DNA of 64,000 bases from Candidatus Saccharimonadia bacterium (GTDB lineage Bacteria > Patescibacteriota > Saccharimonadia > CAILAD01 > BJGX01): contig JBCLLN010000001.1 of assembly GCA_039738635.1 (NCBI GenBank), positions 42,806 to 106,805 on the forward strand, in the 5' to 3' direction. Within the stretch, counting starts at the first letter, position 1; each line of letters begins with the position of its first letter. The notes under the pieces are model-generated. The model was not told where the DNA came from. It worked only from the letters and a program-made list of their open reading frames with translations, and did not search any database. Both the position numbers and the translations under genes were made by a program. This document shows, piece after piece, positions 447 to 26,340 of this stretch.

Positions 447-3400
447 ATGAAAAATGTAGTTTCTTATTTTGAAAATCAGGTTACTAAATATCCTGATAAG
501 ATCGCTATTGAATATAAAAATTCAGTTATCACCTATTCAAAACTTAATGAGAAGTCAAACGAGCTTGCTCATTATTTATTGGGACTCAATGTTAAAAAAG
601 ACGATACGATCGCCTTGTTTTTAAGCAAATCAGTCGGGATGATATCGAGTATTTTTGGTATAGAAAAAACAGGTTGCGCTTACTTGCCCATAAATACCAA
701 TTACCCGATCAGTCGAGTGTTAGATATTTTAAATGATTCAAAAAGTAGGGTTTTGGTGACTGAACATAAGTTTAAAAATATAGCTCTGGAAGTTTTCTAT
801 AATGCTCCAATTGTAGAAAAGTTGATTTTTCTCGACAAGGATAATGGGCCTAAGACAGATTTCACCAATAGTAAAAAGTTATGGAATTTCGTATCCACTA
901 AAGATGATTTAATAGAATCTTCCGGATGGATTAGTAGTTATACGAAAAAGCCATTTAGTCGTTTAGAAATTGATGAACTGGTCGGAAATGTTGTTTCAAA
1001 AATTTCCGCTAATCTTAATAAAGATGCTACGGTATTGGAAATCGGGTCAGGTAGTGGTCTGATCGTAAAAGAAATAGCTCCAAAAGTGAGCAAGTACATT
1101 TGCGCGGACATATCTGACATAGTTTTGAAAAAATCAAAACAAATATTTCAGCATGAAGGAATAAATAATGTCGAATTTTTGCAAATAGATAATAACAACG
1201 CCTTTGATTTGAAGGATAAAGTAGATGTTGTAATTATTAACAGCGTTGTTCAATTTTATATAAACTATGGCGAATTAGAAAAAGTAATATTGCATTGTTT
1301 AGATAAGATAAATGAAGGGGGCATTGTTTTTATTGGCGATATTAGAGACCCTGAATTACGGGATTCCTTTTATGAGTCATTGTTACAGGAAAGTGAATCT
1401 ACCATTGATAAGAGCAGAGTCAATGCTATTGCCTTGAAGAAAAGTCTCGATAAAGATTTGTATGTGAACAAAAAATTCTTTATTGAGCTTTCAAAAAAAG
1501 CCACGAGAGTAAAATCCGTGGAGCTTTCCAATAAAATTGGCAAGCTCAAGAACGAGCTTTCGCTGTATAGGTATGACGTAGTCATTAAAAAGAAAAATAA
1601 TAGTACATCAAAAAATCTTGATAATTCAATAGTGTGTTTACCTGACATAAGGCATCTATCTGTTAATAATCCAAATATTGCAATTGATAATCAACAACTT
1701 GCGTATGTGATCTATACATCTGGTTCAACTGGAAAGCCCAAAGGAGTAATGATTGAACATGGTTCATTGTTCAACAGACTCAATTGGATGCAGAATGAAT
1801 ATTTTTTAGATGGGAATGATAAGATACTATTCAAGACCCCATATTCGTTTGATGTTTCTGTTTGGGAAATATTTTGGTGGTCGATGTACGGTTCACAACT
1901 CGTAATTCTTGAGGATGGCTTCGAGGGTGACCCACAAAAAATATTGGAAATAATTAGGATAAAAAATGTATCTATTTTGCATTTTGTTCCGTCGATGTTG
2001 AACGTGTTTCTTTCTTACATTGATACAAACAAAATTAATCTCTCCAGCGCCTCCCCTAAAAAGGTTTTTACGAGTGGTGAGACTTTGACGGTCGATAGTG
2101 TGAATAGATTTAAAAGATTGTTCAGCGTAAACGGCACAGAACTCCATAATCTTTATGGTCCCACAGAAGCTGCTATCGATGTCACGTATTTTGATTGCGA
2201 CAATCTATCTAAATCGAGCAAATTTGTACCTATCGGTAAGTCTATTCCTAATAATAAGGTTTTCATTGCCGACAAGAATCTAAACAAGGTGCCAAAGGGT
2301 GAAGAAGGTGAAATAGTAATTCAGGGAATAAATTTAGCAAGAGGTTACCTTAATAGTAAAGTAAAGACTGATGAGAGTTTTGTTATAGATCCATTTGGTG
2401 TTAGGACGTACAAGACCGGAGATTTTGGGGTTGAGCTTCCTGATGGAAATATTAAGTATTTGGGCCGTAAAGATAATCAGGTAAAAATCAGGGGTAATAG
2501 AATAGAGTTGGATGAAATTTGGAAAGTGATTTTGGAGAACTCGAGTATTCCAGAGTGTTGCGTTATTGATAGTGATGAGTTAAATGAGGATAAAAAAGTA
2601 ATCTGCTTCTACATATCCAACCAACCAATACACGAAGAAGGTCTTGTTCAAATTTTAGGACGTTATCTTCCAGCTTATTCCATTCCAAATCTTTTTATCA
2701 AAATTATAGAAATACCTACAACTTTACACGGAAAACTGGACAGAAACAAGTTGTTAAGTCTAGTTAATCAGGATGTTTCTATTGTTGCTGATAGTGAACA
2801 AAAAACATATACACAAACCCAACAATCTATTATTAAAATACTAAAGAATCATCTCAAAACAAAAGTAGGGATTGATTCTGATTTTTTCAGAATGGGTGGC
2901 AATTCCCTGCTTGCAATGGTTGTTATCAATGAAATTAACACCGAATTTAAAATAAAATTGTCAATAAGCTCTTTCTTTAAAAATCCGACTCCGTCGAAAC
3001 TTGCACATATCATTGATACACAAGAAAAGGAATTACGAAATGTAAATTTTAATCTGAAAATTCCAGCCGGAATATACCCTGCAAGCCATAATCAGATAAG
3101 AAGTTTTTTTCTTAATAACCTCGATAATTTTAGATTTTATAACATTGTGCAAGTTTGCGAATTGACTGCAAACACTGATTTAGATCGCCTAGAAAAGGCA
3201 ATAGAACTTGCTTTAAATAGCCATGACATTTTCAGAACTCTCCTTGTTGAGCACAAAGGTGGCATTTATCAAAAAATAGATAAATCTTCGAAGATAAAAG
3301 TGTCGCGACTTGAACTGGATGAAGTCGGGATGGAACAATTTATCAAAAAACAAAAAGAGTCTAGGATTGATCTGTGTAAAGATTTACCGATAAAGATTTT

Positions 3401-6400
3401 TCTAATAAAGAAAGGGCTGAAAAATCTTTTACTAATGAATATTCATCATTCAGCTTGCGATGCCAGGTCCCTTGAAATTTTAAACACCCAAATTTCCAAG
3501 TTTTATATAGATCCAAATAGTAAAGGTGGTAACCTGCCTAGCACATATATTGATTTTTCTTTGGCCGAAAGAGATACGGTGGCAATTGAAATGGAGAAGT
3601 CAGAATTTTTCTGGAGAAACTACTTACATGCATATACAGATACAAAATTGCCTATTGATCTAAATTTCAAAAGAGATGGCACTTCGGATGGATCACGATT
3701 ATTGAAACTCAAGATTAGTAAGAGTATTTCTAAAAGCATTTTAAAATATTGCCATAATAATGGCATTACAGAATTTAACCTTTTTATAACGCTTTTCACC
3801 ATTTTCTTATCAAAGATATCTTCCGAGCCAGAAGTTATTATAGGCACACCTATCGCCAATCGTATTGAAGAAAATTTTTGGGAAACCATTGGGTACTTTA
3901 CAAACACCGCACCCTTAAGGCTCAAGGTTGATAATAAATCAAGCTTTAGAGAACTATGTTCAGCCTTCAGGGGAAACTACTTGGAATGCATGGATAACGC
4001 TTTTGTTCCTTTTGACAAACTTATCGACAAGATAGGAGTTAAAAGAATTCCAAATACAAACCCTGTTTTTCAAACGCTATTTAGCTTCAAGGAAGCCTCC
4101 ACATTAAGGGAAGATTATATTCTTTCTGGGTCGCAGATAGTTTCTGATGAAGCTGGAGATATGAGTTTGATTTTTGACGTGATAAAGAGAGAAGCTAATT
4201 TTGAAATAAACTTAAGATTCAATTCTAAATTATTTCTACAGGATACTGTCAATAGATTTTTAGAGCACTTCGAGATCTTGGTACAAGCTATCTTTTCACA
4301 AGATATGGTTGATACGGAAATCGGAAAAATTAAAATAATGAATGAGAGACAAACCAAAGAGATAATTAGATTGTCTACGGGCAAAAGAGTGCCGTTTAAT
4401 AAAAAAAAGAAACTTTTCGATTATATTATAGAAGGTGCCCTCTTGAATCCGAAACGTATTGCCATCATCGATCATGACCGTTCTATAACGTACAAGGAAT
4501 TGGCTGAAAGAATCTTTAATTACGCCTATTTCTTGAAACAAAATGGGATAAAAGAGGGTGATTCTGTTCCAGTGATCATGGATAGGAATATTGCTTCGCT
4601 GGTATCAATATATTCAGTTATGTATTGTGGAGCGGCATATATACCCGTTGTTCCAGAGTATCCTGTCGAGAGAATCAGAAATATTATTGAAAGTAACGGG
4701 ATTTCAACTATTGTGAATGCAAGTAATTCTCACGAACTTGAAACCGAGCTAAGGAAAACATCACCCGAATTGTCTTGGTTGGATTACGCCGAGAATATCA
4801 GTGATATAAAGGCATTAGCTTTCAAAATCAAAAGGGATGAAGCAGATATTGCCTGTATATTTTATACATCCGGCTCAACGGGCAAACCAAAGGGTATTCT
4901 GTGTCCCCATTCTGGATATATAAATATTTTTGATTACATCGCACAAAAATATTCTTTAACCAAGAAGACGGTAGCTGGTCATACCTCCAATTTTACATTT
5001 GATATTTCTCTCGGGGTAATGAACGCCGTGTTCAGCAAGGGCGGTACTCTGATGCTATTTTCGTCCGATGAACTAAAAGATCCTGAACAAATCAGGATGG
5101 GTTTGATAAGAAACAAAATTAACTTTGTGCATTTTGTACCTACCATCCTAAATCATTTAAATCTAGAAGACATAGAATTGGAGTCCCTCGCTTCGGGTGC
5201 TGAAAAAATTTCACCGAGTTTAGCAAAAAGTTTATCTACCAAATTCAGTTTTTTCTTTGAGTACGGTCCGACTGAATCATCAATTTTTACAACAGTGTGG
5301 CAAAGGAGTGGTGAAGAGGTCATTGACGTAGTCCCTATCGGGAAACCAGTTGACAATACTAGAGTATATATTTTGGATGAGAATTTAAATTTCGTGCCAG
5401 TCGGAACTCCTGGCGAGATTTATATTGCTGGCGTTGGGGTGTCTAATGGGTATTTGAATGATCTTGATAAGACAAAAGAAGTTTTTATTCAGGACAAACT
5501 GAAGCCGACACAATACATGTATAAAACCGGGGATATCGGAAAATTTATTCATGACGGCAACATCGTATTCCTAGGCAGAAAAGACAATCAGATAAAAATC
5601 GGTGGTTACAGAATTGAAATCGGTGAAATCGAGAATCTGGCATTGAAGCACGAAGATGTATCCTCTTGTTTTGTTGACCTTCAAACAAATGACTCTGGAT
5701 TTTCAAGTATTATTTTGTACTACTCCTCAAAGAAAAAAATTGAGGGCCGAATTTTGAAAGCGTACTTGAGAGAATTCCTCCCTAATTACATGATCCCGGC
5801 TAAGGTGGTTTATGTGTCCAAGATGCCAAATAGGGTGAACGGGAAGATAGACGTCGATAAACTCAGACAAATCAAGGATGCATACGATATTCTCAACGAA
5901 GACTTAACACCAGAACAGAATATCATTAAAAATATATGGTGTAAGACACTAAACATTACCACACTAGATCTGTACAGTGACTTTTTTGAATTGGGCGGTA
6001 GTTCTTTGAAGATACTAGAGACAATCTATTATTTAAGGAAGGACTGTAATATAACTGTCTCAGTATCTGATTTTTACAGAAATACTATATTCAAAAACTT
6101 TTGTGATATTGTTTACTCTAAAAATGAACCTACTGGTGAGATGGCTAAAAATTTATTTGAAAAACCGATAAAACAAAAAATTAAAATACGAAATTTAACA
6201 ACAAGCAATAAAAAGGTTTTATTGACGGGCTCCACTGGTTTTCTTGGTGCACATATACTTAAGGAATTGATCGTTTCAGATTATTTCAGTAGTATTTGCT
6301 TACTTTTGCGCGGTCGAGATTTATTTGAAGCAGAGGGTAAAATTAGAGAAGAATTTAAGTTTTATTATCCCCATATAGATTTAGCAAAGACCAAGGTGAT

Positions 6401-7256
6401 CTTGGGTGAGCTTTCCATTAAGGATCTGGGAGTATCCAAAAAAGATAAATCGATTTTAACGGATGTCGACATCATAATTAATTGTGCAGCTAAAGTGCAG
6501 CATCTTGGAAAGCAAGAGGACTTTGAAAAGATCAATGCATATTCAGTAAAAAACATCATTGAAACTATAGGAAAGAAAGATCTTGAGTTTATTCAAATAT
6601 CTACATTGTCAATATTTGGAAAAGCACCTAATGACAGGGATGTTGTTTATGAGAATGACCTAGGAATAGGTCAAACTTTTCATAATTTTTATGACGAGAC
6701 GAAATTTAAGGCAGAGGTTTATCTAGAAGATTTTTATAAATCTGGGGGTAGAGGCGGTATTTTTAGATTGGGAAATATCATGAATGAATCTGACACAGGG
6801 CTTATGCAGAAGAATCTTGAAGAAAACGCATTCACGATGATGTTTCAATCAATTATCAACACAAAGAATCTTTGGGGGTTAGATAAGTATATAACAAATA
6901 TATCGCCAGTCGATAAATGTGCTGAATTTATTGTTAAATCAATCTGTAATTATAATTTACAAGGCAATACTGTTAATGTTTATAATCCAAATCTTATTTC
7001 CATGGGCGAATTAGTACAATTCGTAAACCACATGGGAAAATACGATATATCTGAGCTAAACAATGAGTCGGAAATGCCTGAAAAATATGTACCCTACTTA
7101 ACTAATTACTTAAATGCGGAAAAAAGAAGTGCTGTAAGGTACGATAGCACCAACTTCAATAAAATAGCAGAAGATCTGAAGTTTTCTTGGCCAATAATAG
7201 ACGCACCCTATGTGTCAAAAATTATTAAGTATATGATAAAATGTAAAATAATATGA
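447..7256 (+). CDS. Two-module non-ribosomal peptide synthetase: A(MT-interrupted)-T-C-A-T-R
   Basis: A1: A3 motif YTSGSTGKPKGV near nt 1714, NLYGPTE, YKTGD, GRKDNQVKIRGNRIELDEI. SAM-MT motif I VLEIGSGSG near nt 1032, inserted between A2 (AYLPINTNYP) and A3. T1: FFRMGGNSLLA near nt 2883. C: HHSACDA near nt 3445. A2: YTSGSTGKPKGI near nt 4862, EYGPTE, YKTGDIG, GRKDNQIKIGGYRIEIGEIE. T2: FFELGGSSL near nt 5982. R: Rossmann LLTGSTGFLGAHIL near nt 6221. Confidence 0.9.
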   Translation: MKNVVSYFENQVTKYPDKIAIEYKNSVITYSKLNEKSNELAHYLLGLNVKKDDTIALFLSKSVGMISSIFGIEKTGCAYLPINTNYPISRVLDILNDSKSRVLVTEHKFKNIALEVFYNAPIVEKLIFLDKDNGPKTDFTNSKKLWNFVSTKDDLIESSGWISSYTKKPFSRLEIDELVGNVVSKISANLNKDATVLEIGSGSGLIVKEIAPKVSKYICADISDIVLKKSKQIFQHEGINNVEFLQIDNNNAFDLKDKVDVVIINSVVQFYINYGELEKVILHCLDKINEGGIVFIGDIRDPELRDSFYESLLQESESTIDKSRVNAIALKKSLDKDLYVNKKFFIELSKKATRVKSVELSNKIGKLKNELSLYRYDVVIKKKNNSTSKNLDNSIVCLPDIRHLSVNNPNIAIDNQQLAYVIYTSGSTGKPKGVMIEHGSLFNRLNWMQNEYFLDGNDKILFKTPYSFDVSVWEIFWWSMYGSQLVILEDGFEGDPQKILEIIRIKNVSILHFVPSMLNVFLSYIDTNKINLSSASPKKVFTSGETLTVDSVNRFKRLFSVNGTELHNLYGPTEAAIDVTYFDCDNLSKSSKFVPIGKSIPNNKVFIADKNLNKVPKGEEGEIVIQGINLARGYLNSKVKTDESFVIDPFGVRTYKTGDFGVELPDGNIKYLGRKDNQVKIRGNRIELDEIWKVILENSSIPECCVIDSDELNEDKKVICFYISNQPIHEEGLVQILGRYLPAYSIPNLFIKIIEIPTTLHGKLDRNKLLSLVNQDVSIVADSEQKTYTQTQQSIIKILKNHLKTKVGIDSDFFRMGGNSLLAMVVINEINTEFKIKLSISSFFKNPTPSKLAHIIDTQEKELRNVNFNLKIPAGIYPASHNQIRSFFLNNLDNFRFYNIVQVCELTANTDLDRLEKAIELALNSHDIFRTLLVEHKGGIYQKIDKSSKIKVSRLELDEVGMEQFIKKQKESRIDLCKDLPIKIFLIKKGLKNLLLMNIHHSACDARSLEILNTQISKFYIDPNSKGGNLPSTYIDFSLAERDTVAIEMEKSEFFWRNYLHAYTDTKLPIDLNFKRDGTSDGSRLLKLKISKSISKSILKYCHNNGITEFNLFITLFTIFLSKISSEPEVIIGTPIANRIEENFWETIGYFTNTAPLRLKVDNKSSFRELCSAFRGNYLECMDNAFVPFDKLIDKIGVKRIPNTNPVFQTLFSFKEASTLREDYILSGSQIVSDEAGDMSLIFDVIKREANFEINLRFNSKLFLQDTVNRFLEHFEILVQAIFSQDMVDTEIGKIKIMNERQTKEIIRLSTGKRVPFNKKKKLFDYIIEGALLNPKRIAIIDHDRSITYKELAERIFNYAYFLKQNGIKEGDSVPVIMDRNIASLVSIYSVMYCGAAYIPVVPEYPVERIRNIIESNGISTIVNASNSHELETELRKTSPELSWLDYAENISDIKALAFKIKRDEADIACIFYTSGSTGKPKGILCPHSGYINIFDYIAQKYSLTKKTVAGHTSNFTFDISLGVMNAVFSKGGTLMLFSSDELKDPEQIRMGLIRNKINFVHFVPTILNHLNLEDIELESLASGAEKISPSLAKSLSTKFSFFFEYGPTESSIFTTVWQRSGEEVIDVVPIGKPVDNTRVYILDENLNFVPVGTPGEIYIAGVGVSNGYLNDLDKTKEVFIQDKLKPTQYMYKTGDIGKFIHDGNIVFLGRKDNQIKIGGYRIEIGEIENLALKHEDVSSCFVDLQTNDSGFSSIILYYSSKKKIEGRILKAYLREFLPNYMIPAKVVYVSKMPNRVNGKIDVDKLRQIKDAYDILNEDLTPEQNIIKNIWCKTLNITTLDLYSDFFELGGSSLKILETIYYLRKDCNITVSVSDFYRNTIFKNFCDIVYSKNEPTGEMAKNLFEKPIKQKIKIRNLTTSNKKVLLTGSTGFLGAHILKELIVSDYFSSICLLLRGRDLFEAEGKIREEFKFYYPHIDLAKTKVILGELSIKDLGVSKKDKSILTDVDIIINCAAKVQHLGKQEDFEKINAYSVKNIIETIGKKDLEFIQISTLSIFGKAPNDRDVVYENDLGIGQTFHNFYDETKFKAEVYLEDFYKSGGRGGIFRLGNIMNESDTGLMQKNLEENAFTMMFQSIINTKNLWGLDKYITNISPVDKCAEFIVKSICNYNLQGNTVNVYNPNLISMGELVQFVNHMGKYDISELNNESEMPEKYVPYLTNYLNAEKRSAVRYDSTNFNKIAEDLKFSWPIIDAPYVSKIIKYMIKCKII
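955..1350 (+). other. SAM-dependent methyltransferase domain embedded in NRPS A1 between core motifs A2 and A3 (approximate bounds)
   Basis: VLEIGSGSGLIVKEIA (motif I), DVVIINSV (motif II-like), NEGGIVFIGD (motif III-like). Flanked upstream by AYLPINTNY (A2) and downstream by YTSGSTGKPKG (A3). Confidence 0.7.
6180..7253 (+). other. C-terminal thioester reductase (R) domain of the NRPS, SDR-type, NAD(P)-binding (approximate bounds)
   Basis: KVLLTGSTGFLGAHILKEL (TGxxGxxG Rossmann motif) follows directly after the second PCP and runs to the stop; Y..K region YDETKFKAEVY. Confidence 0.7.
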
Positions 7257-8458
7257 GTAATATCTACAGTGAATTGTATCCTTTTCATTCTTGGGGAATG
7301 AAAATCGTAAGAGCAGAAGGAGTTTATTTATTTGATGAAGCTGGTAGAAAATTTATAGACTTAACTTCTTCTGCGAGTGTTGCAAATATTGGATATGCAA
7401 ACGAGAGAGTAATCTCAACGATGCGAACACAACTTGGTAAATTAATTTTCTGTCCGCCGTGGTGCATATCAGACGAAGCAGAAGAGCTCTCAGGAAAATT
7501 GATACGGTTATTTCCAAAATATTTGGATACGATTTTGAGAGTTACAACCGGCAGTGAATCCGTAGAAGTCGCTTTGAAGTTGGCGAAAAAATATACAGAA
7601 AGATCTAAATTTTTAAGTTTTGAACATTCTTATCATGGACACACAATCGCCTCAATGGCGATTGGCATGAATGATGGAACTAAGAAAGACTTCCTACCCC
7701 TCATAGAGTCAGACACATTGAAACATCCACACATTGCCAACGGGATACATATGACCGAATCAGATTTATCCAAGACTCTTGCTGAAATAGAAACAAGACT
7801 TAGTACAAAGGAATATGCGGCATTCGTTACGGAAACAATGGCTACAAGCGCGGGGAATTATATGCTTCCAAAAAGTTTTTTCGCGCACCTTAAAGAAATT
7901 TGTAGCAAATACGGGACATTATTGGTTATCGATGAAGTGTTAACAGGATTTGGAAGAGCTGGAAGAATGTTTTCTTTTGAAAGATTTGAAATCCAGCCAG
8001 ATATTGTTTGTATAGCCAAGGGGCTTGGGTGCGGTTATTCTCCGATAGCTGCCGCAATTACAAAAAAAGAAATTGCTGAAGGTTTTGATTATTTCGCAAC
8101 TTTCGCATGGAATCCATTAGCTTGTAAAACAGCGTCTGCTGTTTTAGATGAATATAAGAGATTAGATCTTGTAAAAAACTCTGAAAATGTGGGCTCAGAG
8201 GCTTTGTTGGAATTACAACAAAAACTTGGTAGCAATTTAAATGTTAAAGAAATTAGGGGGGCAGGCCTAAGGATCTCGATTGAGTTTAACAACGAACATT
8301 TCTTTAAGAAAGTAAAAGACAAGCTGTTGGTAAATGGTATTTTTTCTGGCTCGGCTGACTTGCCCAGTATATTAATTATTAGTCCGCCCCTATGTATTTC
8401 TTTAGAGGAAATGAAGTATGTTATTGCCACCATAGTTAATTGTGTTAACAATGAATAA
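7253..8458 (+). CDS. Class-III PLP-dependent aminotransferase (acetylornithine/GABA aminotransferase family)
   Basis: DEVLTGFGRAGRMF and PLP-lysine context CIAKGLGCG. ATGA start/stop overlap with the NRPS stop. Confidence 0.8.
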   Translation: MSNIYSELYPFHSWGMKIVRAEGVYLFDEAGRKFIDLTSSASVANIGYANERVISTMRTQLGKLIFCPPWCISDEAEELSGKLIRLFPKYLDTILRVTTGSESVEVALKLAKKYTERSKFLSFEHSYHGHTIASMAIGMNDGTKKDFLPLIESDTLKHPHIANGIHMTESDLSKTLAEIETRLSTKEYAAFVTETMATSAGNYMLPKSFFAHLKEICSKYGTLLVIDEVLTGFGRAGRMFSFERFEIQPDIVCIAKGLGCGYSPIAAAITKKEIAEGFDYFATFAWNPLACKTASAVLDEYKRLDLVKNSENVGSEALLELQQKLGSNLNVKEIRGAGLRISIEFNNEHFFKKVKDKLLVNGIFSGSADLPSILIISPPLCISLEEMKYVIATIVNCVNNE

Positions 8459-9104
8459 AATATCTGACGTGTTAATTTATCGGATCCCACTTACTAGAAC
8501 TGATAAATATACACCCAGAAATACAAATAATAATCTGCCATGTACTAACGCAAAAAATAAGTTTAGTGCAGGTCTTTACTTCTGCTCACTAATTTTGAAA
8601 AAAGATTTTAGAGTTTTTGCCAAAAAGTATATTTTCAATACAAATGGAAAGCCCATTTTGGAATCAGGAGAATGTGAATTTAGTATCTCCTATACGGATG
8701 ATCATGTATATATAGCAATAGTTAGAAGCGATATGATTGGTCTTGACGCTGAGAAGATTAAAGTTATTAATCTCAATGTTTCTAAGGAATTTATGTCAGA
8801 AAGAGAATTAGTAAAATTAAAGAGAACAACAAATAAATACAAATACTTCTATAAAATATGGACACTTAAGGAATCGTATATAAAACTCATTGGTTCAGGA
8901 ATTGATAATTCAATAACCGACATAGAATTTATCGAGGATAAAAACGGAAAAATCTCCATAGCTAAAGAAATTACCCCAAAAATATATTTTAGTAATTTTG
9001 TATCAAAAGATTGTATAATATCAGTTGCTTCGTTTAATTTAGTTAATTTCGAGATTATAGAATTTGATAACGCGAAAGAATTTTTAAAAAAATATGGCTA
9101 TTAA
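8451..9104 (+). CDS. Sfp-type 4'-phosphopantetheinyl transferase
   Basis: PPTase motifs GLDAEKI (GxD..E) and WTLKESYIKLIG (W/F-x-x-KE-x-x-x-K). The ORF begins at 8442; the ATG at 8451 (MNKISDVL) is chosen as start. Overlaps the aminotransferase stop. Confidence 0.7.
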   Translation: MNKISDVLIYRIPLTRTDKYTPRNTNNNLPCTNAKNKFSAGLYFCSLILKKDFRVFAKKYIFNTNGKPILESGECEFSISYTDDHVYIAIVRSDMIGLDAEKIKVINLNVSKEFMSERELVKLKRTTNKYKYFYKIWTLKESYIKLIGSGIDNSITDIEFIEDKNGKISIAKEITPKIYFSNFVSKDCIISVASFNLVNFEIIEFDNAKEFLKKYGY

Positions 9105-9840
9105 TACCCCAAATAACTTACCAGAGAAGCAATTAAAGGCATTTGCGGATATTGCAGAGAATCTTTTAAGTAATACAGAAATTGACACTTTATTTTTTTC
9201 AGGTTCTTTTTATCATGGCGACTCTGGACCTAATTCAGACCTAGATTTTATTGCAATTACGAAACCTGAATTTGATTATTCTCAGAGAATACAAGACATA
9301 AGTAATGGAATATTTTATGAACTATTTATTTATTCTGAAAATCAATTAAAAAAATCTTTTGAACGAATGGACTATCAGGACATGCATATGGTCGGTTATG
9401 GTTTCTTGGTTTTCTCAAAGAGTCAAAATTTTGAAAGTATTAAAAAACTTGCCAAAAGCTTGTTTGAAAAGGGACCAGCCAAGATATCAGATAATCAATT
9501 TGAATATGAAAAATATTTATTGTGGGATAAATATCATGATATTCTAGATATTATAATTAAGGATTCTAACTTAGCTGAGTCGCTTATGAATATATTGTTA
9601 TGGGATGCCCTAAGGCTTTTATATGTTGATAAGCGTATCTGGTTTCCTAAGCAGAAAAGATTATTTGAATCACTTATTAAGATTGATAGCGATATCTATA
9701 ACTTGGTTTGTGAGTTTCTAAATTCAGATAATGATAAGAAATATTTATTAGGTAATATTGCAAGAATAGTAGAAAATATAATTTACCCAAATAAACTTTC
9801 TGATCCGTTCATCTGGCAGAGTGAGAAAAAGGTCTTGTGA
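9094..9840 (+). CDS. Pol-beta-fold nucleotidyltransferase domain protein (aminoglycoside/KNTase-like NTase fold)
   Basis: FFSGSFYHGDSGPNSDLDFIAI fits the hG[GS]...D.D nucleotidyltransferase signature. Overlaps the PPTase gene by 11 nt, so it is the last gene of the operon. Confidence 0.5.
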   Translation: MAINTPNNLPEKQLKAFADIAENLLSNTEIDTLFFSGSFYHGDSGPNSDLDFIAITKPEFDYSQRIQDISNGIFYELFIYSENQLKKSFERMDYQDMHMVGYGFLVFSKSQNFESIKKLAKSLFEKGPAKISDNQFEYEKYLLWDKYHDILDIIIKDSNLAESLMNILLWDALRLLYVDKRIWFPKQKRLFESLIKIDSDIYNLVCEFLNSDNDKKYLLGNIARIVENIIYPNKLSDPFIWQSEKKVL

Positions 9841-10038: not shown

Positions 10039-10374
10039 TTATTTGATAGCTTCAAGGTCTTTAAGACACTTATCGTATTGATCCTGTGCATCTTTCCGGC
10101 TTTCGGGGGTGTCTCCAGGGCGGTAAATTCGTGTACCCCTCTCACTTAGTTCTCTGAAGGTTGGGTCACTTGATAGGGGTTCTGCGGCTACGACATGCGC
10201 CTTTTCGATTATCGCTCTTCTTTCGTTATATGTAGTTAAGCAGCGTTGTTTCAGTTCAGCTTTTTTGACGCTTGCTACGCGTGCTTGATATGTATAGATA
10301 AAATATCCACCCAAGCCAAGTAATATCACTGTGGTACAAATTATTAGAGTATATTTGACTTTATTATCTTTCAT
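10039..10374 (-). CDS. Hypothetical small membrane-anchored protein (one N-terminal TM)
   Basis: 111-aa ORF with hydrophobic segment LIICTTVILLGLGGYFIY; no recognisable domain. Confidence 0.35.
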   Translation of the reverse strand: MKDNKVKYTLIICTTVILLGLGGYFIYTYQARVASVKKAELKQRCLTTYNERRAIIEKAHVVAAEPLSSDPTFRELSERGTRIYRPGDTPESRKDAQDQYDKCLKDLEAIK

Positions 10375-10482: not shown

Positions 10483-11274
10483 TTAACTCCCTGCCTTCCA
10501 CTTCTCATTGGAATCTATATATTTTCCGACTGTCGGGTGAGTTGTAAATGTCGATGGAAACCAAAGTATTACATAGGCCTCGTCCTCTTTGCTTGCCCTA
10601 GCTTCACCAAAGACAACTCCGCCATTATATATAGCGATTAAAGTTGTTTCAGATTTACTACCCATACTTTTTACATATGCTACGTTTGCCTGTATCTGCT
10701 CTTGTGTAGCAGAAAAGCCGTCGGGATACGGAAGTTGTGGGTCATAAGAATATTCCAGAACTTCTTTATCAGTATAAATATGGGCACCAAACTCAGGTTT
10801 TCCAGCTTTTTTCGCCAAGTCGGTGAATATTGCTTTAATTTGAGTTTTGAATGCGTCATTTGATAAATCAACTGGATTAATGAGTACATAATATTGTTCG
10901 TTCTTGGCAATACCTACATTATACTTTGTTTTAACTATTTCGTATTTTGGGATAACTACAAGTTCTTCTTTTTTCGTCTCTGCATTCTGTTGTGTTTTTG
11001 TTTCAGAGTTTGGTTTATTATTAGCTGGCTGTTCTACATCAGTATTTACTATAGCTGTCATAATCGGTAACATAACAATAGCTACAACAAAAGTAACTGC
11101 AATTTTAATATTTTTGCTCCAACTTGACTTAGCCCAAGCATACCAAATTAAAAAGTAAGGAAAAAATAATATTACTAAGACTAATCCCCAGCCGTGCTTA
11201 TACCATTCTTTTTTCTTGACTTCGGGTGTTTTAACTTCTGGCGTTGTTGGTTCTTTATTCTTTTTTTCTTCCAT
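10483..11274 (-). CDS. Membrane-anchored protein, paralog 1 (conserved N-terminal leader+TM, unique C-terminal domain)
   Basis: N-terminus MEEKKNKEPTTPEVKTPEVKKKEWY is identical to the downstream paralog, followed by a TM segment; 263 aa. Confidence 0.5.
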   Translation of the reverse strand: MEEKKNKEPTTPEVKTPEVKKKEWYKHGWGLVLVILFFPYFLIWYAWAKSSWSKNIKIAVTFVVAIVMLPIMTAIVNTDVEQPANNKPNSETKTQQNAETKKEELVVIPKYEIVKTKYNVGIAKNEQYYVLINPVDLSNDAFKTQIKAIFTDLAKKAGKPEFGAHIYTDKEVLEYSYDPQLPYPDGFSATQEQIQANVAYVKSMGSKSETTLIAIYNGGVVFGEARASKEDEAYVILWFPSTFTTHPTVGKYIDSNEKWKAGS

Positions 11275-11286
11275 AAGTCCTCACTA
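11200..11286 (-). repeat. 87-bp direct repeat, copy 1 (5' coding end + RBS region of paralog 1)
   Basis: Identical to 11824..11910: ataccattcttttttcttgacttcgggtgttttaacttctggcgttgttggttctttattctttttttcttccataagtcctcacta. Confidence 0.8.
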
Positions 11287-11898
11287 GTTATGGAACCTGA
11301 AGGCGCCGTAGCGTGTATTCCCATTTATCTTACACTTGATGACTACATTTTTAACAGCTGTTGTATCAGGATTAAACCTTGTGCCGTCACTTTTTGTAAA
11401 TAGTGGGTAAGGGTTGTTGAGTGGACTGTTTGGTTGAAGTGGATTTCTAATAGTTCGTTCATAATCACCGTTTAGCTTGATTTCACATTCGTCCCAAGCG
11501 ACAGTTTCAAGGTTTGTTACTTCAATACCTGGGACATCATAGGCTTTCTTGATTTCAGCTTTTAGGTCGCTAGTATCTTCCTTTGGCTCTTCTTTTTTAG
11601 GCTGTGCAGTTTGTTGTGTCTGGGTGGGCGTTTCGGTAGGGCTAGCAGTATTTGTAGTCGAATTGTTGCTGCCAGTTGACACAACACCCACGACAATCAA
11701 CAAAGCAATTAAGCCTGTTAACACCCATTTTATTTTATTGCTAGCTTTGGTTTTATTCCAAATCCACCATATACCAAAAAGTGGTAAAAATAGTATTGCA
11801 ATCACAACACCCCACCAATTCATATACCATTCTTTTTTCTTGACTTCGGGTGTTTTAACTTCTGGCGTTGTTGGTTCTTTATTCTTTTTTTCTTCCAT
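11284..11898 (-). CDS. Membrane-anchored protein, paralog 2 (same leader, different C-terminal domain)
   Basis: First 25 aa are identical to the 10483..11274 product, followed by a TM (W-rich), a Thr/Asn/Ser-rich linker and a distinct C-terminal domain; 204 aa. Confidence 0.5.
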   Translation of the reverse strand: MEEKKNKEPTTPEVKTPEVKKKEWYMNWWGVVIAILFLPLFGIWWIWNKTKASNKIKWVLTGLIALLIVVGVVSTGSNNSTTNTASPTETPTQTQQTAQPKKEEPKEDTSDLKAEIKKAYDVPGIEVTNLETVAWDECEIKLNGDYERTIRNPLQPNSPLNNPYPLFTKSDGTRFNPDTTAVKNVVIKCKINGNTRYGAFRFHN

Positions 11899-11910
11899 AA
11901 GTCCTCACTA
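11824..11910 (-). repeat. 87-bp direct repeat, copy 2 (5' coding end + RBS region of paralog 2)
   Basis: Identical to 11200..11286. Confidence 0.8.
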
Positions 11911-12095
11911 ATTATAGTTTTAGCATACTCCGAATTTTATATATATCAAACTAGGCTGGGCATACAATAGCAGAGTATACCTAAGCAATACAAACTTAAG
12001 AGTAGTTACCATATATAGTGAGTTAGATGGTGGGGTGTATAATAAGAAGAGTTCTAACCTGGTTCACAATGGCCAGCCATTAATGTGGTGTAATA

Positions 12096-12390
12096 TTGAC
12101 AAGGCGCTTATGATGTGCTAAGTTATCCTTACAACTGAATAAGCCAAAAAAGCGATTTAGTTGGGAAAATGGTCCCAACGAGCTGACTTGTGAACCATCC
12201 TACGGGAAAGTAGCAAGCTCCGGAAGAAGTCCGTTATCATACTTCAACCAACGCCACCCCCTGGGTAAACTGAGTTGGTACAGAGGTTAGCCTAGCAATA
12301 GGCTGGCGAAGCAAGGTGGCACCACCATAACGGTCCTTGCAAGTTCTTGAAGCTGTATAGCTTTGGGAGTTTGCAAGGGCTTTTTAGTTG
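12096..12390 (+). ncRNA. Candidate structured non-coding RNA (about 250 nt) or long structured 5' leader; family not identified
   Basis: TTGACA (12096-12101), 17-bp spacer, TAAGTT (12119-12124). No convincing ORF. Long-range complement ggttcacaa (12061) / ttgtgaacc (12188), hairpin AGCCTAgcaaTAGGCT (about 12288-12303), and terminator-like CCTTGCAA(12335)...TTGCAAGG(12378)-GC-TTTTT(12381-85). Confidence 0.2.
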
Positions 12391-12573
12391 GAGACTAAAG
12401 ATGAAGAACAAAACTATATCAATTTGGTGGCGATGGTGGCCTATGCGTAGCACGGATTGTCTTTGCTCCATCGCCAATGTCTCGTCCCCTGAGAAGCGTT
12501 TGTTTGAAACCGGCAGATAAGCACAAGTTTGTCTGCTGGAACAGCCAAAAGCCCTTTCACAAGGAGGAACAAG

Positions 12574-13158
12574 ATGCGCATCACCAGGACAACACCCGAT
12601 CTTGGGCTAGCAACCGAGATCGCGGCTAGCGGGTTCTGTCAACCAGTCACGCCTGAGTTAGAGCAAGATGTAGCAGGCCATCTAGATGGTGGCGAGCTTG
12701 TTTACACCGTCCACGAAGGTGAGCAGACGGTAGGCTTCGCCATCTTCAATGTCTGGGGTAGTAATGTGCTCTATTTGAGCGGGATCATCCTCGACACCGA
12801 CCATCAGCGCCAAGAGGCGGTCTCCAAGACCATTCATGCCGCCAGAAGTGTGGCAAAAGAAGTGGCATACCTATCACTACGCACACAATCTCTGCGTATG
12901 TGGGTGGCAGGGTCGAAAGTTTGTCGGGAGTGGCACCCAACCCACACAGACGAGGAAATCCCGCCATACTTGACCGAAGTCGGCCAAGAGACCGCTGATC
13001 GAATCAAATCGGTATTCCCGATAGAAGAGGGTTGCTATGACGGCCCACTTTACGGAGAGAAGCCGGTCTACCACGACCAGATACTCCAATTATGGTGGGA
13101 TGGCATCTGTAACTTCGAGCGAGGTGACGCAGTCATCTGTGTTGGTGTTCTCTTGTAA
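12574..13158 (+). CDS. Hypothetical protein in GC-rich (about 55%) island; no recognised domain
   Basis: The ORF opens at 12529, but the AAGGAGG RBS (12561-67) plus the ATG at 12574 is the likely start. Product MRITRTTPDLGLATEIAASGF...; composition is sharply different from the flanking AT-rich DNA. Confidence 0.4.
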   Translation: MRITRTTPDLGLATEIAASGFCQPVTPELEQDVAGHLDGGELVYTVHEGEQTVGFAIFNVWGSNVLYLSGIILDTDHQRQEAVSKTIHAARSVAKEVAYLSLRTQSLRMWVAGSKVCREWHPTHTDEEIPPYLTEVGQETADRIKSVFPIEEGCYDGPLYGEKPVYHDQILQLWWDGICNFERGDAVICVGVLL

Positions 13159-22384: not shown

Positions 22385-22404
22385 ATGCGTATCGTATGGC
22401 TGGA

Positions 22405-22472
22405 CTGGAGGACTGTCCTCTAACAGATAGAGCTTATGTGATACTATTCATTCCAGGGAGACACCCTGGATT
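22405..22472. repeat. 68-bp direct repeat copy A (contains two hairpins, including the CCAGGGAGACACCCTGG palindrome)
   Basis: ctggaggactgtcctctaacagatagagcttatgtgatactattcattccagggagacaccctggatt; about 90% identical to 22806..22873. Confidence 0.8.
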
Positions 22473-22790: not shown

Positions 22791-22805
22791 AAAGTAGTTG
22801 CTTTC

Positions 22806-22873
22806 CTGGAGGATTGTCCTCTAATAGATAGAGTTTATGTGATACTATTCATTCCAGGGAGACACCCTCGATT
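22806..22873. repeat. 68-bp direct repeat copy B
   Basis: ctggaggattgtcctctaatagatagagtttatgtgatactattcattccagggagacaccctcgatt. Confidence 0.8.
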
Positions 22874-25293: not shown

Positions 25294-25337
25294 GCATATT
25301 TGTAATTCTCTAACCTGGAAAAGGCCAGGCCTTTTTT
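25294..25337. repeat. 43-bp direct repeat copy 1 with terminator-like hairpin (CCTGG-aaaagg-CCAGG-CC-T6)
   Basis: gcatatttgtaattctctaacctggaaaaggccaggcctttttt; near-identical to 26298..26340. Confidence 0.75.
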
Positions 25338-26297: not shown

Positions 26298-26340
26298 GCA
26301 TATTTGTAATTCTCTAACCTGGAAAAGGCCAGGCCTTTTT
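26298..26340. repeat. 43-bp direct repeat copy 2
   Basis: gcatatttgtaattctctaacctggaaaaggccaggccttttt. Confidence 0.75.

Follow-up and report, generated by a model that had tools for sequence, protein, structure and literature searches.

The window analysed here is a 64,000-nucleotide (64-kb) stretch of the 108.9-kb contig JBCLLN010000001.1 from Candidatus Saccharimonadia bacterium. On its reverse strand lie two adjacent genes, B and A, that open with the same 88 bp and then encode different proteins. Each predicted protein consists of a short N-terminal tail (N-tail), a Trp-rich hydrophobic hairpin that would act as a membrane anchor, a linker and a C-terminal domain, called the cargo below. 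The explanation that we favour, with a probability of about 0.62, is that A and B belong to a family of tethered proteins and that a short, conversion-like tract was recently copied between these two old paralogs. The two genes and the two copies of the shared module are, in the order of transcription:

11823..11910, reverse strand: module copy 2, formed by the upstream sequence TAGTGAGGACTT with its GAGGA ribosome-binding site (RBS) and the first 76 nt of gene B; exact match to 11199-11286.
11284..11898, reverse strand: gene B, an open reading frame (ORF) of 204 amino acids (aa), with N-tail 1-23, anchor 24-77, linker 78-109 and cargo 110-204.
11199..11286, reverse strand: module copy 1, formed by the gene B stop codon TAG, a 9-nt spacer with the RBS and the first 76 nt of gene A; exact match to 11823-11910.
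10483..11274, reverse strand: gene A, an ORF of 263 aa, with N-tail 1-23, near-consensus anchor 24-77, linker 78-104 and cargo 105-263.

The two copies are the longest exact in-register match at an offset of 624 nt (11199-11286 = 11823-11910), and their 88 bp are also the longest exact repeat in the window, with runners-up of 43, 34 and 27 nt. A reading made earlier from the sequence alone (the sequence-only reading) had reported a perfect repeat of 87 bp at 11200-11286 and 11824-11910; the identity stands, since both intervals lie inside the exact match, and the length becomes 88 bp. On the sense strand, the repeat reads TAG-TGAGGACTT-ATG, followed by codons 1-25 (MEEKKNKEPTTPEVKTPEVKKKEWY) and the first base of codon 26. 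The 25 codons and RBS region said to be common to both genes thus correspond to 12 nt upstream of the ATG, which include the GAGGA site, 25 codons and 1 nt. In module copy 1, the TAG doubles as the gene B stop codon, so that the two genes lie 9 nt apart. The N-tail of B (residues 1-23), which is identical in A, is rich in K, E, P and T, and in both proteins it leads into the Trp-rich hydrophobic hairpin; the linker of B (78-109) has a T/Q/P/K/E composition. A repeat scan and BLASTP bear out the description of A and B as paralogs in tandem that share the 5' module exactly, carry a Trp-rich anchor and end in unrelated C-terminal domains. The borders of the repeat are abrupt, at −12 and +76, with 88/88 identity between them. 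At ~60% identity, the level of the adjoining homologous stretch, 88 consecutive matches would have p ~3e-20, and chance is excluded as the origin of the identity.

Beyond the module, nucleotide identity between A and B falls to 55% over codons 26-62 and to about 32% over codons 63-88. The same amino acid is encoded at 16 of the 37 positions of codons 26-62. Where that amino acid has synonymous alternatives, the codons are identical in 5 of 13 cases, against 25 of 25 codons inside the module. Synonymous sites of codons 26-62 are therefore saturated, which means that the A and B anchors diverged long ago. The anchors are 37% identical over a 62-residue anchor alignment and come from different subfamilies. 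By BLASTP, the similarity between the two proteins stops near residue ~86, and no similarity was detectable between their C-terminal domains. In-register homology extends over about 104 codons when a short island in the linker is included. The segments concerned are:

11668..11829, reverse strand: anchor-coding part of gene B, residues 24-77, a diverged member of the family (hidden Markov model (HMM) of the family anchors, E=3e-24), with helices at 28-49 and 54-72 in the structure model.
11588..11619, reverse strand: linker island of gene B, the partner of 10964-10995.
11044..11205, reverse strand: anchor-coding part of gene A, residues 24-77, with helix 1 GWGLVLVILFFPYFLIWYAWA, loop KSSWSKNIKI and helix 2 (same HMM, E=6e-33).
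10964..10995, reverse strand: linker island of gene A, coding-sequence nt 280-311, identical to 11588-11619 at 27/32 positions in the same 624-nt register.

The island score of 27/32 was reached by none of 5000 local shuffles and in none of 300 other registers. Upstream of −12, the sequences before the two copies agree at 39% of 44 nt (p=0.03), which is not convincing enough to read the stretch before B as the decayed remains of a third gene copy, and that idea was dropped.

In the wider family, the N-tail is the most variable segment in both length and sequence, and the anchor is the most conserved. Purifying selection would accordingly preserve the anchor, yet it is the tail and the RBS that are 100% identical between A and B. 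The identity therefore points to recombination, because a module at 100% adjoins a more protein-conserved anchor that stands at 55% with saturated synonymous sites. The sequence-only reading had taken the perfect identity to imply ongoing recombination; the step from 100% to 55% upholds recombination but not its continuing activity, since there is one assembly and one recent event suffices.

Judged by this profile, the repeat is best explained, and most likely arose, by gene conversion or patch replacement of a short tract, a recent event between paralogs that are themselves old and collinear. In their N-terminal halves, over about 104 codons, A and B would be old collinear homologs of different anchor subfamilies, and the 88-bp tract, with the RBS and 25 codons, would have been copied recently and non-reciprocally between the genes, where its copies now lie 624 bp apart. 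The copying could have proceeded by gene conversion or by template switching, with the bases that encode KEWY and the ...ATAAY-TAG bases as the presumed microhomology. It would leave two genes with identical translation-initiation regions and N-tails, the latter probably cytoplasmic, and with different ectodomains. One recent conversion-like event of this kind accounts for the identity of B and A and is an ordinary explanation. Most orthologs of B have short tails (P0034-39 start with MNKQKEWY), which hints that A was the donor, and transfer from A to B is weakly favoured.

Short-tract gene conversion is known from tufA/tufB in Salmonella and the opa genes of Neisseria. Like conversion between paralogs, the event proposed here has produced a sharp-edged perfect block in diverged close paralogs, with synonymous sites homogenised within the tract only. 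It differs in that the A/B tract is only 88 bp long and covers the RBS and the least conserved segment of the protein. Since the homology flanking the tract is weak, template switching through microhomology and RecA-dependent conversion are equally plausible. A-type and B-type architectures are each present in other lineages, so neither is a fresh fusion.

The family to which A and B belong is defined by its anchor, with the consensus xKKEWYKHGWGLVxAILFFPYFxIWYAWAKSxWSKNxKI followed by a second hydrophobic helix. Residues W5, Y6, P20, W28 and T42 are invariant in the family alignment. Both A and B carry the family motif (W-Y-x3-W/G-G, a helix 1 Pro, a W-x-W-x-K-S-x-W-S-K loop and the second hydrophobic helix), B in a diverged form, and both have the family layout of a low-complexity linker followed by one small cargo domain. 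As read from the alignments, a typical member would comprise a short Lys-rich N-tail, a Trp/Tyr-rich two-helix anchor, a flexible T/Q/P/K/E linker and a single interchangeable ectodomain. The anchor is found mainly in Patescibacteria (Saccharibacteria, Moranbacteria and others) and in a few other metagenome-assembled genomes (MAGs). Labels of Bdellovibrionales, Betaproteobacteria and Gammaproteobacteria on some anchor loci may reflect binning errors. Database matches to A and B are hypothetical proteins only, and those with named sources come from Candidatus Saccharibacteria or Saccharimonadales MAGs; to judge by these best matches, the source is probably a member of the Saccharibacteria group. 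Full-length homologs of B are 45-63% identical, the best orthologs 60-63%, and the anchor of A has homologs at 65-76% identity. The proteins A and B themselves are database singletons from one contig.

No model in Pfam, NCBIfam or PHROGs covers the anchor, and the sub-threshold matches in these collections are driven by transmembrane or low-complexity sequence. A profile search with the anchor alignment against a set of 5.8 billion proteins returned 2 fragments only and was uninformative. Literature searches found no description of the anchor family, nor of gene conversion or superinfection exclusion in Saccharibacteria at the level of genes. Two domain families that are missing from Pfam and NCBIfam are defined here, the anchor and the 'PKYEI...EQWKP' cargo domain of protein A. 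The nearest formal parallels to the anchor are YSIRK and KxYKxGKxW, conserved N-terminal signal motifs on otherwise unrelated Gram-positive surface proteins. Both share with it the arrangement of a conserved hydrophobic N-terminal module before diverse surface domains, and WYKHGWG loosely resembles YKxGKxW. The NCBIfam and Pfam models of these motifs do not match the anchor, however, which has two helices, an invariant mid-helix Pro and a Lys-rich loop, and in which nothing suggests cleavage or dedicated export.

The cargos carried on this anchor are diverse: 87 unique cargo sequences cluster into 21 classes. The cargo of B (110-204) was modelled by AlphaFold as a seven-strand beta-sandwich with a predicted local distance difference test score (pLDDT) >90, and two Cys residues are invariant across its homologs; the model suggests an immunoglobulin (Ig)-like beta-sandwich with a probable disulfide. 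Structure searches of PDB and BFVD with this cargo returned generic Ig-like folds only, none of them at E<0.01 in PDB. The cargo of A, about 150-160 aa long, belongs to an uncurated family with the pattern 'PKYEI...DPVDLSND.FK...VGKYVG.EQWKP' (in a looser form 'PKYEI...VGKYxxxExWKP') and 176 representatives at E<=1e-3. It has no relative in Pfam or PDB; the match of its profile to PDB is confined to the lipoprotein leader of LpqN and lies outside the domain. A structure model of the A cargo, built from a 2-sequence alignment, had a pLDDT of 37 and was unusable. Many homologs of the A cargo are lipoproteins with LAGC-type lipoboxes or single signal-anchor proteins. In its closest homologs, P0002, P0046 and P0047, the A-type domain follows a hydrophobic N-terminal segment of ordinary type, and a C-terminal extension with a conserved CFIATAAYG...LR.FRD motif is possibly a module for sorting or anchoring. 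Pfam scans of the other anchored cargos found Ltp in 7 of the 56 other members, and also SNase and Excalibur; DUF3761 (PF12587) occurs on many anchor matches according to the precomputed annotation of the database.

Several features suggest that the cargo lies outside the cell, namely the lipoprotein and single-transmembrane homologs, which include some homologs of the B cargo with single-transmembrane anchors, the Cys pairs and the extracellular cargo families. Over 72 non-identical anchors, the net charge is +2.2 before helix 1, +3.1 in the inter-helix loop and −0.9 after helix 2. The difference between loop and post-helix-2 segment fits a cytoplasmic loop from which helix 2 would run from inside to outside. 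As the flank before helix 1 is positive too, helix 1, with its invariant mid-helix Pro, may be a re-entrant hairpin, or else the Lys-rich N-tail may be exported.

The genes that surround other family members point to mobile elements. When the ORFs of related loci were clustered, one neighbour family, of large serine recombinases that contain Resolvase, Recombinase and Zn_ribbon_recom domains, appeared in about half of the loci. Of the 36 non-redundant anchor genes whose loci are 6 kb or longer (fetched with 6 kb on either side), 23 have such a recombinase within 6 kb, and of all 57 non-redundant anchor genes, 12 have one directly adjacent (gap <=700 nt), both being raw counts that are not set against the general density of recombinases. 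Many cargo classes are represented among the 27 recombinase-linked loci, with B-type (L004, L009, L015, L023, L035) and A-type (L017, L019, L022) members. In L017, the gene order is ParB-methyltransferase, methyltransferase, TerS, TerL (phrog_38, E=3e-78), recombinase and anchor gene. This block (L017:446-6744) is prophage-like, and it is found also in L018, L021 and L022; the MAGs concerned bear the labels Bdellovibrionales or Moraniibacteriota. Further common neighbours of anchor genes are DNA methylases, restriction genes and toxin-antitoxin genes. Repeated intergenic elements of 68-83 nt occur in three loci (L005:5676-5817 and 6608-6678; L015:6189-6271 and 7341-7423; L012:244-311 and 1094-1161). 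They flank the anchor gene in L005 and L015, where the L015 copies include a terminator and a TTGACA promoter box, and the L012 pair lies ~5 kb upstream of the anchor gene. This pattern suggests moron-like units with reused regulatory ends.

In such surroundings, the anchor genes occupy the classic position of lysogenic-conversion or superinfection-exclusion genes. The leading inference for the family is accordingly a prophage or mobile-element moron with a surface role in exclusion or adhesion, a function proposed for the family as a whole and not shown for A and B. The favoured function would be the surface display of binding domains as moron proteins, superinfection-exclusion-like for example, by analogy with Ltp. 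Ltp, the prototype of such proteins, is a lipoprotein tethered to the surface; phage TP-J34 encodes it in its lysogeny module, and it prevents the injection of DNA (PMC3952083). The Ltp-type exclusion lipoproteins of temperate Streptococcus phages (PF07553) are paralleled by the 7 anchor-family members that carry the Ltp domain itself as their cargo. A and B, in contrast, have no Ltp domain and possess a Trp-rich two-helix anchor in place of a lipobox; the integrases of their relatives are large serine recombinases, and no integrase lies near A or B in the window. Literature searches found no superinfection exclusion described at gene level in Patescibacteria, only general statements that lysogeny seems common there.

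A bolder version of this idea holds that the anchor is a dedicated prophage or integrative-element scaffold of Patescibacteria, which displays interchangeable ectodomains on the lysogen for exclusion or lysogenic conversion and whose coding sequence doubles as a recombination linker. The B-A tandem would then be a snapshot of shuffling after the element had decayed. We regard this as speculative and rather unlikely.

Several observations weigh against the favoured account of a tethered family with a recent tract between two of its members. The direction of transfer is confounded by P0041, a B-type relative that has a long tail rich in K, P and T, and the closest relative is only 63% identical. 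Flanking homology, at 39% upstream and 55% in the anchor, is poor for classical gene conversion, which leaves the exact mechanism uncertain. The evidence comes from a single assembly, of which 64 kb of the 108.9-kb contig were covered. Both flanks of helix 1 are positively charged and Lys-rich, which complicates any assignment of topology. The window contains no recombinase, and no phage gene lies near A or B, so a mobile-element context is not shown for these two genes; nor was the anchor found in IMG/VR viral contigs or isolated phage genomes. The first 30 kb of the window show no synteny with the related loci.

The rival that fares best is a single recent partial tandem duplication of a 624-bp unit made of module, B body and spacer, in which the second body was later replaced by, or fused to, A sequence and the 88 bp are the youngest remnant. 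The geometry speaks for it: gene B and the 9-nt spacer together are exactly as long as the 624-nt period, in-register homology reaches codon ~104, and the repeated unit includes the TAG that gene B uses as its stop codon. A duplication of one age, however, cannot yield 100% identity over 88 bp and then at once 55% with saturated synonymous sites. The anchor of A, moreover, is 65-76% identical to the anchors of other proteins and only 37% identical to that of B, and both architectures are old and found in other lineages. At least two events of different age would be required, the younger of which amounts to conversion or patch replacement, and we consider this origin unlikely.

It is more improbable that selection on the nucleotides themselves keeps the 88 bp identical, as part of an initiation or regulatory RNA element, a site for a small RNA or a protein, or a recombination site for programmed deletion of gene B. 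The RBS and the start codon do lie inside the tract, which is purine-rich and unstructured like good initiation regions, and direct repeats around the B body would permit a RecA-mediated deletion that would place A behind the promoter of B. Constraint on initiation regions, though, spans about −20 to +15 and would not fix every synonymous site over 76 coding bases, and across the family conservation is lowest in the N-tail. The module RNA showed no stable or unusual structure (z-scores −0.24 to +0.40), and an Rfam E-value scan of 11850-12650 gave no match over the 5' part of gene B, module copy included. The two TPEVK units inside the module differ from each other at 3 synonymous sites, which argues that the sequence is not intrinsically frozen. 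A back-translated TPEVKKKEWY pattern, finally, matched neither any of 185,579 GTDB species genomes nor the Joint Genome Institute (JGI) metagenomes, collections that do not hold the source genome.

The sequence-only reading had likened the locus to polymorphic surface or toxin cassettes, in which recombination would join one conserved leader to alternative effector modules at the C-terminus that are kept as cassettes. Known examples with orphan C-terminal cassettes are CdiA-CT/CdiI, Rhs and MafB. A and B resemble these systems in combining a conserved N-terminal part with variable C-termini and in showing recombination through the conserved part. The pairing of a conserved anchor with variable cargo holds across the family, where one N-terminal module is found on at least 21 classes of unrelated C-termini, and the local identity shows recombination at the 5' end. 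The comparison with toxins and silent cassettes goes no further. No toxin or enzyme domain was detected in A or B: neither cargo has a significant match to a toxin, Pfam, NCBIfam or PDB family, nor to a toxin family in PHROGs. No immunity gene lies in the 9 nt between B and A, and A is followed just by an ORF of 111 aa without a family match. Both copies are complete and translatable, each with its own RBS and ATG, and neither is a 5'-truncated silent cassette; A and B are small proteins, unaccompanied by the large delivery protein or secretion system of polymorphic toxins. The identical tract corresponds to the N-tail and not to a junction beside the variable domain. The 64-kb window holds two module copies and two anchor ORFs only, a third module copy being absent even with 15 mismatches allowed, and the rest of the source genome lies outside the searched collections. 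Among 65 related loci from genomes and metagenomes, 64 are single-copy; the one tandem (L015) has its anchor genes ~3 kb apart with non-identical 5' ends. A cassette system is therefore a poor candidate for this locus, marginally poorer than selection on the nucleotides.

Least probable of all is an assembly artefact in which two strain variants, one with B and one with A, were joined through the shared 88 bp: the source is a MAG contig and A and B are singletons on it, but 88 bp is below ordinary short-read length, so that reads would span the repeat, assemblers do not usually work with k-mers or overlaps of that length, the junction of B 3' end, TAG and module needs genuine spanning k-mers, and each copy is flanked by unique coding sequence with intact reading frames.

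Two further features adjoin the gene pair:

11922..11949, reverse strand: weak sigma-70-like promoter candidate upstream of gene B, TTGATA-16-TATGCT, found by a consensus scan only, with 9/12 matches.
10039..10374, reverse strand: the small ORF of 111 aa that follows A at a distance of 108 nt, N-terminally anchored and without a family match.

B and A are probably co-transcribed from the promoter candidate, to judge from their arrangement, although promoter-like sites are no more frequent in the scan than expected by chance. The 111-aa ORF is possibly part of the same transcription unit, its membership being uncertain. Antisense to gene B runs an ORF of 120 aa (11549..11911, forward strand) with a BLASTP match to the antisense frame of the family locus L059; it was rejected as a gene and regarded as an artefact of the conserved sense strand.

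Other parts of the window hold features of separate interest. Upstream of gene B, on the opposite strand, a T-box-leader-like element lies at 12146-12341 (forward strand; RF00230, 43 bits against a gathering score of 93, E=4.4e-8) and is followed by a terminator-like hairpin at 12333-12380. The ORF downstream of it (12529/12574..13158, forward strand; GC 0.52-0.55) resembles weakly a GNAT-like acetyltransferase and is not the usual aminoacyl-tRNA synthetase or amino-acid gene. A low-GC block at 447..9840 on the forward strand (GC 0.26-0.39 vs 0.41 for the window) encodes a two-module nonribosomal peptide synthetase (NRPS) of 2269 aa with the domain order adenylation (with an embedded methyltransferase), thiolation, condensation, adenylation, thiolation and terminal reductase, together with a class-III aminotransferase, a 4'-phosphopantetheinyl transferase and a nucleotidyltransferase. 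An NRPS island would be unusual for a Saccharibacteria-type genome, and this one looks horizontally acquired. A direct repeat of ~68 nt (22403-22470 and 22804-22871, forward strand), ~90% identical with a 34-nt exact core and two hairpins, precedes two consecutive genes, one for a membrane protein of 91 aa with apparently three hydrophobic segments and the other an ORF that, by sequence only, looks like a HAD-type hydrolase. It has no match in Rfam even at E<=1 and could be a repeated cis-regulatory RNA or promoter element. An exact 43-nt repeat (25294-25336 and 26298-26340, forward strand) includes a terminator hairpin (CCTGGAAAAGGCCAGGCCTTTTT) and stands after two consecutive genes.

Taken by itself, the 88-bp identity of A and B is a routine sign of local recombination and of minor importance. 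The anchor family and its link to serine integrases are a modestly novel by-product of the analysis. Patescibacteria, to our knowledge, largely lack clustered regularly interspaced short palindromic repeats (CRISPR), and we know of almost nothing that has been established experimentally about how ultra-small episymbiotic bacteria interact with phages and hosts. If the anchored proteins are indeed prophage surface proteins that act in exclusion, receptor masking or adhesion, they would provide candidate genes for the dealings of these ultra-small episymbionts with their phages and their hosts.

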